A stretch of 58,789 nucleotides of DNA from assembly GCA_964490075.1 (NCBI GenBank), contig CAZBBK010000003.1, forward strand, positions 124,001 to 182,789. The letters run 5' to 3'. The translations under genes and the position numbers were made by a program. The notes below the pieces were generated by a model, which saw only the letters and a list, made by a program, of their open reading frames with translations, ran no database searches and was not told the DNA's origin. Numbering within the stretch: position 1 is the stretch's first letter; each line of letters starts with the position of its first letter. Positions 27,023 through 48,344 of the stretch are shown here, piece after piece. Source of the stretch: an uncultured Gemmatimonadota bacterium (GTDB lineage Bacteria; GCA-2686955).

Positions 27023-28099
27023 ATGACCATGCCGCTGCCGCGCGCCGCCTTTCTCCTGCGCTACGACAGCTTCGTGCGCAACCACGTGCCGGTGGCCCAG
27101 CGCTGGCGGGAGCGCGGCGGTGAGGCGCGACTCTGGGTCGTCGACGACCCGCTCAAGCCCTGGATCACCCGCGAGGTGGAGGGGATGCTGGCGGGCGAAG
27201 CCTGGCGACGCAGCCACCCCTTGCGCCTCGCATCGCGGGTGGCCGAGTGGCGCCCCAACGTGGTCTTCGCCGGTTTGATCCTGCGCCGCGGCACAGCCCG
27301 CATGCTCGCGCGCTTGCGCCGGCTGCGTCCCGGCGCGCTCTTCGTGGGCGGCTACATCGGTGCCATGCTCGACAACCGTCCCAGGGGCTTCGTCAAGGGA
27401 GTGCAGCGCCGCGCTCGTCTCTGCGACCTGATCTGGACGCCGGGCCCACGCGGCCGCGACGCGGTGCTGGCCACCGGTCTGGTGCCGCCCGGGGTCGATG
27501 TCGAGGCGACCGGTCTGCCCTCCTTCGATCAGCTGGCGCGGCGCTTCGCCGCGCAGCCGCCGGAGCCCCGCGGCGACATCCTCTTTCTGGGGCAGCCGAC
27601 CTATCCCAAGGGGCGCGCGGAGCGCCTCGATCTGCTGCGTCGGCTGGCCGCCCTGGCGCGCGCTCGGCCGTGCGATTCCGTGCTGCTGAAGCCGCGCTTC
27701 CAGGGCGCCACCCACCACGCCCACCGGCCCCGGCACCACTACGGCGAGCTGCTCGCCGGCCTGCGCAACCGTCCGCCCAACCTGGAGATCACCCACCGGC
27801 CGATCCCCGATCTATGTGGCGGCGCGACCATGGCGCTCACCTTGAGCTCCACCGGCGGCATCGAGACCATGCTGGCCGGTGTTCCGACCTACTTTCTCGA
27901 CGACTGGTGCGCCGGGAGCAATCGCTACGGCAGCGACTATTTTCGCGACTCGGCCGGGGTGGTCTCGATCGAGCGCTTGATCGCGGGCGAGCGCCCGCCG
28001 GTGCGCCTCGACTGGGCGCGCGAGGTGTTCACCTGCGATGGCCACAACGCCGAGCGCCTGGTGGAGCGAGTGGCGGAGCGATGGTCGACGCGGACGTGA
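27023..28099 (+). CDS. Putative GT-B glycosyltransferase (DUF6716-like)
   Basis: YDSF N-terminus, ATGLP, FLGQPTYP, LLKPR, LTLSSTGGIE..LAGVP; adjacent to nonulosonate genes. Confidence 0.55.
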   Translation: MTMPLPRAAFLLRYDSFVRNHVPVAQRWRERGGEARLWVVDDPLKPWITREVEGMLAGEAWRRSHPLRLASRVAEWRPNVVFAGLILRRGTARMLARLRRLRPGALFVGGYIGAMLDNRPRGFVKGVQRRARLCDLIWTPGPRGRDAVLATGLVPPGVDVEATGLPSFDQLARRFAAQPPEPRGDILFLGQPTYPKGRAERLDLLRRLAALARARPCDSVLLKPRFQGATHHAHRPRHHYGELLAGLRNRPPNLEITHRPIPDLCGGATMALTLSSTGGIETMLAGVPTYFLDDWCAGSNRYGSDYFRDSAGVVSIERLIAGERPPVRLDWAREVFTCDGHNAERLVERVAERWSTRT

Positions 28100-28701
28100 G
28101 CGGGGGCGGCGCGATCCTGGTCATCGGCAACGGCCCCTCGGCGAGCCGTGCTGAGCTCGGTGCGCAGATCGACCGCTTTCCGGTGGTGGGCCGCATCAAC
28201 AACTACGCCACCGAGGGATTCGAGACTCGGGTCGGCCGCTGCACCGACATCTGGTTCAACGGCGCCAACCAGGGGCTGATGCGGCGACGCCAGCCGCCGC
28301 CGCGCATCGTCGTGCTGATCCCCTCCGCGGTGCAGCGACACAAGGGCGCGGCCTTGCGACCGCGTGTTCGACGGCGACTCGGGGTGGCGGAGGGCGGTTA
28401 CGAGCTGGTGGCGCTCGGCGAGATCGAGAGCTACGAGGGCACCCTCGGTGTGGATCGGGTCACCACCGGAACGATGGCTCTCCTGTGGGCGCTGCGGCGC
28501 TTCGACGAAGTCCACATCCACGGCTTCGATTTCTTCCAGGGCTCGCGCGCCCACTACCACGACTCGCGCGTCAAGCGCTGGTGGGTCGACGCGGTGCACT
28601 CCAGGCGCGGGCGCCGCCACGACAACGAGGCGGAGCGGCGGCATGTCGCGGGGTTGCGCGACGCCGGTAGGATCTCGCTCTTGGAGCGGCCGCGGGGTTG
28701 A
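28096..28701 (+). CDS. GT29-family (animal-type) sialyl/nonulosonyl-transferase-like protein; alternative start at 28081
   Basis: Sialylmotif L (VIGNGPS...LGAQID...GRINN...GFETRVG..TD), motif S (TTG..AL..AL...DEVHIHGF), motif III (HYHD), VS (HDNEAE). Confidence 0.78.
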   Translation: MSGGGAILVIGNGPSASRAELGAQIDRFPVVGRINNYATEGFETRVGRCTDIWFNGANQGLMRRRQPPPRIVVLIPSAVQRHKGAALRPRVRRRLGVAEGGYELVALGEIESYEGTLGVDRVTTGTMALLWALRRFDEVHIHGFDFFQGSRAHYHDSRVKRWWVDAVHSRRGRRHDNEAERRHVAGLRDAGRISLLERPRG

Positions 28702-45861: not shown

Positions 45862-47532
45862 ATGCCGAGCCAGTCCGAAACCCGCCATATCTTCGTCGTG
45901 GGCGGGGTGGTCTCTTCGCTGGGCAAGGGGATCGCGTCCTCGTCGCTCGGGCTTCTGCTCGAGAGCCGCGGGCTGAAGGTGACGATCCAGAAGTTCGATC
46001 CCTACATCAACGTCGATCCCGGAACCATGAACCCCTTCCAGCACGGCGAGGTGTTCGTGACCGAGGACGGTGCCGAGACCGATCTCGACCTGGGGCACTA
46101 CGAGCGTTTTCTCGACCGGCCGCTGACCAGCAACAACTCGGTGTCGACCGGGCAGATCTACAATGCGGTGATCGCCCGCGAGCGGCGCGGCGACTACCTG
46201 GGGGCGACGGTGCAGGTGGTGCCGCATATCACCAACGAGATCATGGAGCGCTTCACCACACTGGAGCGCTCCCAGGAGCTCGACGTGGTGATCACCGAGA
46301 TCGGCGGCACGGTGGGCGACATCGAATCCCTGCCCTTCCTGGAGGCGATTCGCCAGTTCCGCCACCGCCGCGGCATGGACCGCACGATGGTGGTGCAGCT
46401 CACCTACATCCCCTACCTCGCCGCCGCCGGCGAGCTCAAGACCAAGCCGACCCAGCACGCGGTGAAGCAGCTGCAAGAGATCGGGATCCAGCCCGATATG
46501 CTGCTCTGCCGCACCGAGCGCTCGCTGGACCGCGGAATCCGCGACAAGATCGCGCTCTTCTGCAACGTCCCGCTGGAATCGGTGATCGAGATGAAGGATG
46601 CCCCCTCGATCTACCGGGTGCCGATTCAGCTCTCGGCGGGGGGGATGGACCGGGCGGCGGTGGAGCGGCTCTCGCTGACCTGCGCCGATCCCGATCTGGG
46701 CGACTGGGAGCGGATGCTGGCGCGCATGGAAAACCCGGAGGGGGTGGTGCGCATCGCCCTGGTCGGCAAGTACGTGGCGCTGCGCGACGCCTACAAGTCG
46801 GTCGCCGAGGCGCTGATTCACGCCGCCGGGGTGAGCTCGGCGCGGCTCTCGATCGCCTGGATCGACGCCGAGGATCTGGAGCGTTCCGGGGTCGAGGCGC
46901 TGCTCGACGACGTCGACGGGATTCTGGTGCCGGGCGGCTTCGGCTATCGCGGCTTCGAGGGCAAGCTGGCGGCGGCGCAGTATGCGCGCACCCGCGGCGT
47001 GCCCTATCTGGGGATTTGTCTGGGGCTGCAGATCGCGGCGATCGAGATCGCCCGCAACCTGCTGGGGCTGGAGGGGGCGAATACGCTGGAGGCCGACCCG
47101 CACACGCCGCACGCGGTGATCTCGCTGATGGCCGACCAGGAGGGGGTGCGCGACAAGGGCGGCACGATGCGCCTCGGGGCCTTTGCCTGCGAGTTGACCC
47201 CGGGGTCGCGGTCGCAAGCGGCCTACGGCGGTCGCGAGCGGGTCGACGAGCGCCACCGCCATCGTTACGAGTTCAACAACGACTACGCCGAGCGCTTCGA
47301 GCAGGCCGGGGTGGTGCTGGGCGGACGCAATCCCGAGCTCGGGCTGGTCGAGATCCTGGAGCTGCGCGACCACCCCTGGTATGTCGCGACCCAGTTCCAT
47401 CCCGAGTTCACCTCGCGGCCGACCCGGCCCAACCCCCTCTTCGCGGCCTTCGTGGAGGCCAGCCTGGAGCACCGGGTGAGGGTCAGCGGGCGTGGGGCTC
47501 GCGAAGAAGGCGGAGTGCAGAGGGACGCATGA
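45862..47532 (+). CDS. pyrG: CTP synthase
   Basis: [45 protein letters not shown]. Confidence 0.98.
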
Positions 47533-48344
47533 TCGAGCTGGCACGCGTGGCGGAGCTGCGGCTGGGGCCGCTGAAGATCGGCAACCGCAATGCTCTGGTG
47601 CTGGTGGCGGGGCCGGCACGACTGGAGAGCGCGAAGATGGCGCTGGAGGTGGGGCGGGAGCTGCGGGACATCTGCCGCTCGCTCAGAATGCGCCTGGCCT
47701 TTCGCTCGGCAATCGACCCGGGTGGGGTGGACTCCGACCTGGAGATCCTGGCGCAGGTGCGGGCCGAGATCGAGGTGCCGGTGGTGGCGCTGCTCGACGA
47801 GGCGGGGCACGCGGAGCGGGTCGCGGCGGGGGTGGACGGGTTGCAGCTCGCCGAGACGCTTGCGCGACGCGGCGGCGCTGCCGCGGCCTGCGCGGCGACC
47901 GGACGACCGTGCATCGTGCAGAAGGAGGCGGTGGAATCGCCTTGGGAGACGGTGGCACGGCTCGACCCCGAAGGAGGGCGCGGCGGGATCATGGTGGCCG
48001 AGGGGGGGACCGCTTTCGGCTACGGCAACCGCGTGGTCGACTTCAGATCGTGTGCGGTGCTGCGCGCCGCCGGATTGCCGGTGCTGCTCGACCTGTCGCG
48101 GGCGGTGGCCTTGCCCGGCACGGGGGGAGAGGGGGGCGAAGGCGGACGCCGGGAGTTCTCGCGCCACCTGGCACGGGCGGCGACCGCGGTGGGGATCGAC
48201 GCACTGGGTTGCGACGTTCATCCCGATCCCGCGAATGCGACCTGCGGGCGCGAGACGCAGATTCCGCTGGCCGAGGTCAAGGAGCTCCTGCTCGAGGTGC
48301 TGGCGGTGGACCGGGCGGTGCGCGCCGGCGCGACCTACCGGTGA
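47529..48344 (+). CDS. kdsA: KdsA (Kdo-8-P synthase) homolog, apparently a catalytically dead pseudoenzyme
   Basis: [24 protein letters not shown]...GG.REF...LARAA.AVG.D, HPDP fold motifs and the pyrG-adjacent position are retained; KANR(S/T)S motif and metal/PEP ligands are lost. Confidence 0.85.

Follow-up and report, generated by a model that had tools for sequence, protein, structure and literature searches.

A msbA-neuA-neuB-phosphatase-waaA operon as a candidate replacement for the Kdo pathway in an uncultured bacterium

Kdo (3-deoxy-D-manno-octulosonate), as added by WaaA, is regarded as the single unvarying sugar of lipopolysaccharide (LPS), and is the basis of LPS chemical assays and of models of outer-membrane evolution. 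In the canonical pathway, as in E. coli and Aquifex, the WaaA donor CMP-Kdo is made by KdsD, KdsA, KdsC, and KdsB. Variants of Kdo are known in LPS, namely Ko in Burkholderia and Acinetobacter and 8-amino-Kdo in Shewanella. A related route in Bacteroides thetaiotaomicron leads to 2-keto-3-deoxy-D-glycero-D-galacto-nononic acid (KDN) by way of a KDN 9-phosphate (KDN-9-P) synthase and a KDN-9-P phosphatase (PDB 3E81 family), and a Kdn pathway is described for the haptophyte Prymnesium (PMC6200933). Here, we describe a 58,789-nucleotide stretch of DNA (the window; positions 124,001–182,789 of contig CAZBBK010000003.1, assembly GCA_964490075.1) from an uncultured bacterium labeled Gemmatimonadota, in which msbA, neuA, neuB, a phosphatase gene, and waaA form a minus-strand operon (28702–34175). 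This operon would constitute a self-contained route to a CMP-activated 3-deoxy-2-ulosonate for lipid IVA, replacing KdsD, KdsA, KdsC, and KdsB, with KDN as the likeliest sugar; we give this reading a probability of about 0.62.

The operon and the Kdo genes of its genome

At approximately 69% G+C, the window abounds in open frames, and genes were selected by third-position GC content (GC3) and family matches. The five minus-strand genes overlap or lie no more than 17 bases apart, and the tightly packed operon described in the initial annotation was recovered with all of its genes at or near the positions first proposed. The first gene (32331–34175) encodes a MsbA-like lipid A flippase with ABC_membrane and ABC_tran domains, for which TIGR02203 was the top-scoring of 189 families (512 bits; cut-off 602). 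It is followed by genes for a NeuA-type CMP-ulosonate synthetase (a cytidylyltransferase; 31622–32344; PF02348, 83 bits), a NeuB-family ulosonate synthase with a SAF domain (30546–31604; PF03102, 266 bits; SAF, 33 bits), a HAD phosphatase of the KdsC/KDN-9-P-phosphatase family (30016–30549), the GTG start of which overlaps the neuB stop (GTGA), and a WaaA-like GT30 transferase (28702–30012; PF04413, 113 bits against a cut-off of 23.9). The best score of the latter on the NCBIfam WaaA equivalogs is about 97 bits, below their cut-offs of 363–617.

The source genome is a 5.7-Mb draft of 136 contigs, 95% complete, and is placed by the genome collection in a small high-GC phylum with five species genomes. 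Its relatives in this phylum carry the label of ‘Gemmatimonadetes’ metagenome-assembled genomes (MAGs) in NCBI; for true Gemmatimonadota, CMP-Kdo synthesis has been reported (PMC11651109). The only kdsA-family match in the source genome is a dead copy (see below). No kdsB was found in the whole genome, in which the other weak cytidylyltransferase (CTP_transf_3) matches are GlmU and RmlA, and no kdsD, for which the only matches were to CBS domains; the lack of both genes first noted for the window thus holds for the 95%-complete genome. There is one NeuB, one CMP-ulosonate synthetase, and, above cut-off, one KdsC-family phosphatase, and the window WaaA is the sole GT30. With LpxC (315 bits) and LpxK (241 bits) both present, synthesis of lipid IVA is to be expected. 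NeuC is lacking from the genome, its sole Epimerase_2 protein being a non-hydrolysing WecB (323 bits; 78 bits for NeuC against a cut-off of 236), and no NanE; thus, no known route to N-acetylmannosamine (ManNAc) or ManNAc 6-phosphate is visible. A second nonulosonate or Kdo pathway elsewhere in the genome was considered and rejected, given the identities of the CTP_transf_3 matches (GlmU/RmlA) and the Epimerase_2 match (WecB).

NeuB, NeuA, and WaaA are clustered in all five species genomes of the phylum, each of which has a single GT30 match. The initial annotation had raised a search for intact kdsA, kdsB, and kdsD in the genome and its relatives; none was found in the source genome, and none scored above cut-off in any of the five species genomes (0/5). 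In one of these (G001, 95% complete), a sub-threshold ‘kdsA’ is a chorismate mutase–DAHP (3-deoxy-D-arabino-heptulosonate 7-phosphate) synthase fusion, so kdsA is absent there. In two others (G002 and G003), pyrG, the kdsA-like gene, and lpxL stand directly beside the msbA-neuA-neuB-phosphatase-waaA genes, in divergent orientation.

In the window, the dead kdsA copy belongs to a plus-strand operon about 11 kb from the minus-strand operon. This operon begins with pyrG (CTP synthase; approximately 45862–47532; PF06418, 405 bits, together with a GATase domain), followed by the kdsA-like gene (47529–48344; TIGR01362, 149 bits against a cut-off of 314), which starts at an ATG overlapping the pyrG stop and not at 47016. 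The protein also falls short of the NF003543 cut-off (162 vs. 242 bits), and the genome-wide search with TIGR01362 gave 147 bits. Next come a gene for an LpxL-like lipid A late acyltransferase (48344–49294; PF03279, 126 bits), the start of which overlaps the kdsA-like stop, and lptC (49295–49822; PF06835, 63 bits), which shares a stop-free frame with lpxL. Both Pfam domains lie in a single 776-aa open frame (48344–49822, plus strand), which may encode an LpxL–LptC fusion protein.

Homologues of the KdsA-like protein were sought among 1.84 billion representative sequences, and the eight nearest were aligned together with solved structures. The search returned 18 proteins at E ≤ 1e-30 and no close family beyond the protein's own cluster; the best non-self matches are 38–39% identical (P0122 closest, at 38%). 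Compared with the eight nearest homologues, the Cys of AGPCVIES is replaced by Ala, the substrate loop FDKANR(T/S)S is removed by an 11-residue deletion, and TDVHE has become ALLDE; LQIPAFLCRQTD of the homologues corresponds to an altered 12-residue stretch. Furthermore, KKGQF retains one Lys, ERG reads EGG, DATHSVQ reads DLSRAVA, and E.H.DP..A.SDG reads D.H.DP..A.CGR. The four metal ligands of the metal-dependent KdsA class, which we take to be C11, H185, E222, and D233 in Aquifex numbering, are Cys, His, Glu, and Asp in 8/8 of these homologues and Ala, Arg, Asp, and Gly here; C11N and H185G mutants are named in PDB titles among the structural matches. The initial description of a kdsA without its active site is thus upheld, with all four metal ligands and most substrate-binding residues lost. 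The G002 copy keeps the loop as KGART and has the other losses in common with the window copy; the active site was therefore lost stepwise under constraint.

The AlphaFold2 model of the KdsA-like protein has a mean predicted local distance difference test score of 88.9 and a predicted template modeling (TM) score of 0.90, and its top Foldseek matches are all Kdo 8-phosphate (Kdo-8-P) synthases (TM 0.80–0.90; root-mean-square deviation ∼2 Å). The ratio of nonsynonymous to synonymous substitution rates (dN/dS) against the G002 orthologue is 0.30, compared with 0.27 for lpxL, 0.26 for waaA, 0.24 for msbA, 0.21 for neuA, 0.17 for the phosphatase gene, 0.14 for neuB, and 0.08 for pyrG, all of these being rough values because dS is about 1 and near saturation. 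The GC3 of the kdsA-like gene (0.87) is similar to that of its neighbors. The possibility that the gene is a pseudogene was rejected on the basis of its dN/dS, its GC3, and the confident fold. Judged from its sequence, the protein is catalytically dead for Kdo-8-P synthesis, retains the fold of these synthases, and is under purifying selection.

Distribution of the module and of the Kdo genes

The 80 loci with the closest WaaA relatives were retrieved from the genome collection with an alignment of three WaaA sequences; phosphatases were counted at matches above 100 bits, and NeuBs as module type at ≥400 bits (∼60% identity). A phosphatase is present in 61 of the 80 loci, 59 of which have it immediately upstream of waaA in the same orientation. 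NeuB occurs in 52 loci (45 of them with the module type), NeuA in 50, and phosphatase, NeuB, and NeuA together in 45. The carriers are MAGs labeled Marinimicrobia/Neomarinimicrobiota, Fidelibacterota, Cloacimonadota, Eisenbacteria, Chitinispirillum, ‘FCB group’, and ‘Lentisphaeria’, and NeuB orthologues 59–67% identical to that of the window adjoin waaA in other phyla. Of the 19 loci without a phosphatase above 100 bits, 16 belong to Chlorobium, Prosthecochloris, other Chlorobiota, a Tannerellaceae MAG, and a few other MAGs; the other three are cut at a contig end (L078), have the phosphatase merged into the waaA ORF (open reading frame; L094), or are a 574-bp fragment (L113). The merged ORF (7608–9128 of L094) is 507 aa long and matches both phosphatase (54 bits) and WaaA, by way of either a fusion or a lost stop codon.

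Recurrent neighbors are GT29-like genes (29/80), a DUF3108 gene after waaA (28/80), IspD-like genes (20/80), and, interposed between neuA and neuB, an EptA-like sulfatase-family gene (15/80). The inserted sulfatase-family protein is a membrane protein of about 670 aa, of EptA/LtaS type by Pfam (L044, L046, L051–L053, L055, L056, L058, L061, L082, L091, and others). In pelagic Marinimicrobia MAGs (L072, L073, L075, L077, and L097), the gene order is neuB-neuA-phosphatase-waaA; NeuB of this variant is about 285–290 aa long, too short for a SAF domain, and 37–39% identical to that of the window, and NeuA is about 29–31% identical. These loci seem to have taken up other synthase and activating genes while keeping the phosphatase-waaA pair. 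In two Marinimicrobia-type loci (L079 and L084), pyrG lies just downstream of waaA, which repeats the link between CTP synthase and ulosonate genes in the relatives of the window.

A maximum-likelihood tree of 78 WaaA rows (quick method, LG+G4, midpoint root, with uneven composition flagged), from which three truncated ORFs (L043, L057, and L113) were left out, splits at a Shimodaira–Hasegawa-like approximate likelihood ratio test (SH-aLRT) value of 99 into 16 rows unlinked to a phosphatase and a clade of 62; within this clade 60 rows are linked, the exceptions being L078 and L094. The window WaaA falls within the linked clade. Both clades have an invariant HAAS-GE and an invariant Glu in H(S/N)..EP, whereas three positions that are otherwise conserved distinguish the linked from the unlinked clade, one of them equivalent to Aquifex N273. 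In Aquifex WaaA, S28, G30, E31, N273, and E276 are described as catalytic or CMP-binding residues, with N273 in contact with the CMP phosphate, and the Glu that is kept in the linked clade is described as ribose-binding (PMC6286764). At the equivalent of N273, Ser is found in 93% of the rows of the linked set (n = 60), and Asn in 83% of those of the unlinked set (n = 18), a replacement compatible with an altered donor. A candidate change at the donor site, from ‘PRH’ in Aquifex to ‘PHE’, was dropped, both clades having PH.

A panel of 48 genomes reached via these WaaA loci comprises 37 from the linked clade and 11 from the unlinked clade. Above cut-off, kdsA was found in 1/37, kdsB in 1/37, and kdsD in 0/37 linked-clade genomes, both single occurrences being in the same genome (G008), compared with 9/11, 9/11, and 8/11 in the unlinked clade, where a tenth kdsB scored just below cut-off (142 bits) and two genomes beyond the eight with kdsD (G045 and G049) have single-SIS isomerases at ∼158 bits. 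Sub-cut-off TIGR01362 matches in the panel scored 100–134 bits and are mostly to frames of about 340 aa, of which only the G001 chorismate mutase–DAHP synthase was identified. Thus, the co-occurrence with kdsA loss raised in the initial annotation proved strongly positive: neuA-neuB-phosphatase-waaA synteny marks a single WaaA clade, in which 36 of the 37 panel genomes lack all three kds genes, against none of 11 in the sister clade.

The same exclusion was seen in an even sample of 121 genomes (≥85% complete) from the phylum to which one of the Marinimicrobia carriers belongs. Here, kdsA is present in 72 genomes, all of which also have kdsD (72/72), and kdsD alone in two more; module-type NeuB (54–67% identical to that of the window) is present in 35, none of which has kdsA or kdsD (0/35). 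The nine genomes with only distant NeuBs (29–41% identical) all have kdsA. In kdsA-bearing Marinimicrobia, the order is pyrG-kdsA-kdsC (L139 and L140), the same frame as that of the dead kdsA in the window, and in both of these genomes (G054 and G057) kdsD follows kdsC on the same contig and strand, at a distance of about 0.2–0.7 kb. The linkage of phosphatase and waaA is not due to chance, as judged from its presence in 61/80 loci and from the exclusion of kdsA and kdsD in the 121 genomes.

Both Eisenbacteria MAGs (G008 and G014) carry the module next to waaA. In G008, there is also a native-looking kdsB-pyrG-kdsA on a contig with a GC content of 0.63, similar to that of the module contig. 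In G014, pyrG is followed by a kdsA remnant of 133 residues, which has undergone large internal deletions, and then by an Arg-type kdsC; the remnant (L136, approximately 2980–3290) keeps CVVES and DATHSVQ, and its middle and C-terminal parts have been lost by in-frame deletions. The Eisenbacteria thus provide evidence of ongoing replacement with intermediate states. Decay of kdsA has thus followed gain of the module more than once, which is what one would predict for a module that meets the need formerly met by the Kdo pathway. The gene content, synteny, and losses, the mutual exclusion, and the sequence constraint are observed features of these genomes.

Proposed function and alternatives

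The family assignments of the three module enzymes are as follows. Aligned with the Neisseria meningitidis enzyme, the window NeuB conserves the residues of its motifs E, K, S, H, E, H, and D, presumably including the metal-binding His and Glu. Its score for PseI is 224 bits, below the cut-off of 340. The NeuA-type enzyme has PseF as its best NCBIfam match (121 bits) and reaches 30 bits on the KdsB family TIGR00466, against a cut-off of 155. For the phosphatase, the best solved structure is 3E81 (137 bits), which we take to be the B. thetaiotaomicron KDN-9-P phosphatase; KdsC structures score 85–113 bits. This affinity points weakly to KDN. At the two positions altered in the deposited variants 4HGQ and 4HGR, the window phosphatase carries Glu and Lys, compared with Arg and Ser/Asp in two KdsC structures; this Glu and this Lys are invariant in 62/62 linked phosphatases; the kdsC adjoining kdsA in kdsA-bearing Marinimicrobia is of the Arg type.

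We infer the enzymatic steps, the identity of the sugar, and the use of lipid IVA as acceptor from these assignments and from the genomic context. The NeuB-family synthase would condense a sugar 6-phosphate, in all likelihood that of mannose, with phosphoenolpyruvate (PEP) to form KDN-9-P; the HAD phosphatase would remove the phosphate; and the NeuA-type enzyme would activate the sugar with CTP, the supplier of which, pyrG, is linked. The sole GT30 (WaaA) would then transfer the activated sugar to lipid IVA, which may be extended with additional residues by the GT29-like and DUF6716 proteins, before LpxL completes acylation and MsbA flips the product. The kdsA copy after pyrG would be a relic that makes no Kdo-8-P and is kept as a folded, non-catalytic protein. 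A non-Kdo product is favored by the loss of the arabinose-5-phosphate isomerase (KdsD) together with KdsA (0/35 module genomes vs. 72/72 kdsA genomes), as well as by an activating enzyme of NeuA type and not KdsB type. The absence of NeuC and NanE favors KDN over Neu5Ac. The presence of a phosphatase implies a phosphorylated intermediate, for which mannose 6-phosphate would then be the simplest substrate. Of the two possibilities offered in the initial annotation, these sequence data support a nine-carbon sugar in place of Kdo; the other, a NeuB-family enzyme acting as a Kdo-8-P synthase, is less favored.

Several observations weigh against a KDN route. To our knowledge, the WaaA enzymes studied to date use CMP-Kdo. 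The window NeuB scores 330 bits on TIGR03569, below the cut-off of 400, and is 30–41% identical to the phosphatase-adjacent Bacteroidales NeuBs, the presumed KDN-9-P synthases, among which it has no close orthologue; orthology to these proteins was dropped for this reason. The phosphatase scores 163 bits on NF058599 (KDN-9-P phosphatase), below the cut-off of 180. Glu/Lys-type phosphatases also occur in two Chlorobi genomes with the Kdo pathway, in one of them as the sole match, as well as fused to an intact KdsA in protein P0122. The signature is thus not diagnostic of KDN-9-P specificity, and was demoted from proof to weak evidence. In G008, a linked-clade genome, the module is accompanied by intact, apparently native kdsA and kdsB, and by this gene content the module need not exclude Kdo. 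Among the 121 genomes, 12 have none of the three markers. Furthermore, most comparison genomes are MAGs, and relatives are non-independent samples. The genes adjoining the Chlorobi Glu/Lys-type copies are unrelated. P0122 is a 458-aa protein of intact KdsA and a KdsC-family phosphatase; a second fusion, P0123 (495 aa), joins KdsA to an Arg-type phosphatase.

Some of these points would fit a module that has the same role and still yields Kdo, with NeuB as a displaced Kdo-8-P synthase, arabinose 5-phosphate supplied by an unrecognized isomerase, the phosphatase as a KdsC orthologue, and the NeuA-type enzyme making CMP-Kdo. NeuB and KdsA are distantly related PEP-condensing barrels (the NeuB Pfam family matches DAHP synthase), the phosphatase exceeds the cut-off of the KdsC subfamily TIGR01670 (117 vs. 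107 bits), its type recurs in Kdo-pathway Chlorobi and in P0122, the catalytic motifs of WaaA are kept, and both gene sets are found in G008. However, KdsD is present in 0/5, 0/37, and 0/35 module genomes, compared with 72/72 kdsA genomes of the same phylum sample, and the kdsD search does detect single-SIS isomerases at ∼158 bits where present (G045 and G049). Three enzymes would each have been replaced with no change of product, and we regard this explanation as unlikely.

Less likely still is that the neu genes feed only the GT29-like and DUF6716 transferases, for outer glycans or glycoproteins, with WaaA using another donor or idle and no operon-made ulosonate on lipid A. A GT29-like gene does lie beside the module here and in 29/80 loci, and G008 combines kdsA and kdsB with the module; but the phosphatase abuts waaA in 59/80 loci, far more often than GT29 is present, and msbA, the EptA-like gene, and lpxL share the neighborhood. 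No source of CMP-Kdo is apparent in 36/37 linked-clade genomes, yet the WaaA motifs are intact and dN/dS is 0.26. Decay of kdsA is confined to module genomes, and its repetition is hard to reconcile with neu genes that serve outer glycans only. That Kdo genes exist and were missed through assembly gaps or divergence would be in keeping with a 136-contig, 95%-complete draft and with comparison genomes that are mostly MAGs. This is very improbable, given that three unlinked genes are absent at once in 5/5 phylum, 36/37 panel, and 35/35 sampled genomes, that the same searches score neighboring lineages far above cut-offs, and that the kdsA locus is assembled and holds a dead copy.

With a KDN-type route as the preferred reading, it appears that many lineages of ecological importance have exchanged the donor pathway and, probably, the sugar as well. 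A broader proposal, which we put forward tentatively and at somewhat less than even odds, is that this GT30 clade consists of CMP-KDN (or other nonulosonate):lipid IVA transferases in part of Marinimicrobia, Cloacimonadota, Eisenbacteria, Chitinispirillum-type Fibrobacterota, and the phylum of the window, such that, in these abundant environmental bacteria, the lipid A-proximal sugar is a nine-carbon relative of sialic acid, the GT29-like protein adds a second residue, dead KdsA is a non-catalytic partner of the late lipid A machinery, and Kdo is not universal in LPS. A swap of donor pathway and sugar would give the first natural Kdo-free lipid A core, and would mean that the donor specificity of GT30 is able to shift. 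It would also account for the verdict of module-based annotation that CMP-Kdo synthesis is missing from these phyla, and would provide a clean case of pathway displacement with intermediates (both pathways, a deleted relic, and a conserved pseudoenzyme). The invariance of Kdo also underlies lists of antibiotic targets (KdsA, KdsB, KdsD, and WaaA) and pathway-based calls of ‘LPS present’ in metagenomes. Full-text searches, which covered neither subscription literature nor supplements, yielded no paper describing a nonulosonate as the donor for WaaA, or lineages of the FCB (Fibrobacterota–Chlorobiota–Bacteroidota) group that lack Kdo.

Neighboring genes and comparison with known systems

Convergent with waaA are two plus-strand genes, for a DUF6716 putative glycosyltransferase (26921–28099; PF20471, 131 bits) and for a short GT29-like protein of the sialyltransferase family (28081–28701; PF00777, 54.6 bits against a cut-off of 23), the latter overlapping the DUF6716 stop; the GT29 protein mentioned in the initial annotation is therefore real. 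They are 36 and 46% identical, respectively, to the DUF6716 protein encoded within the Marinimicrobia-type module of L051 and to the GT29-like protein of that locus. DUF6716 genes occur in merely 2/80 of the WaaA-relative loci. The stretch of about 11 kb between the two LPS operons of the window includes a plus-strand operon for a Na+-translocating decarboxylase (39318–43230; carboxyltransferase, PF01039, 602 bits; biotin carrier; OAD_beta, 509 bits). A RES-domain protein (44127–44894; PF08808, 55 bits) and a 342-aa ORF with a weak AbiEi-like match (together 44127–45926, minus strand) probably form a RES-type toxin–antitoxin pair, which is absent between the LPS operons in G002 and G003. Three long plus-strand ORFs with good coding signal and no or weak Pfam matches (34477–39504; 469 aa, 668 aa with a faint LVIVD repeat, and 295 aa) and a small protein with a type IX secretion system (T9SS) C-terminal sorting domain (43757–44095) are also encoded there.

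The canonical CMP-Kdo/WaaA pathway resembles the system described here in having a PEP-dependent synthase, a KdsC-family HAD phosphatase, a CMP-transferase, and a GT30, as well as linkage to pyrG, msbA, lpxL, and lptC; sister lineages (G054 and G057) keep pyrG-kdsA-kdsC. It differs in that, here, the synthase is of the NeuB family and not KdsA, the activating enzyme is NeuA-type and not KdsB, there is no arabinose-5-phosphate isomerase, KdsA exists only as a dead protein, and WaaA belongs to a separate clade with Asn replaced by Ser at the equivalent of Aquifex N273. As in the KDN pathway of B. thetaiotaomicron, a NeuB-family synthase gene adjoins that of a small HAD phosphatase, and the window phosphatase is nearest to 3E81; of 12 Bacteroidales loci inspected, 10 have the two genes side by side in this way. 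Unlike in B. thetaiotaomicron, the pair is joined here to waaA and msbA, in genomes without Kdo genes, whereas in Bacteroidales the Kdo pathway coexists (G045 has kdsA). The vertebrate NANS-NANP-CMAS route and the Kdn pathway of Prymnesium share the order of a synthase acting on a phosphorylated sugar, a phosphatase, and a CMP-synthetase, but their products go to sialyltransferases for terminal glycans, and we know of no link of either to lipid A. Ko and 8-amino-Kdo are likewise exceptions to plain Kdo at the lipid A-proximal position; they derive from Kdo or arise through its pathway, whereas here the pathway itself is absent.

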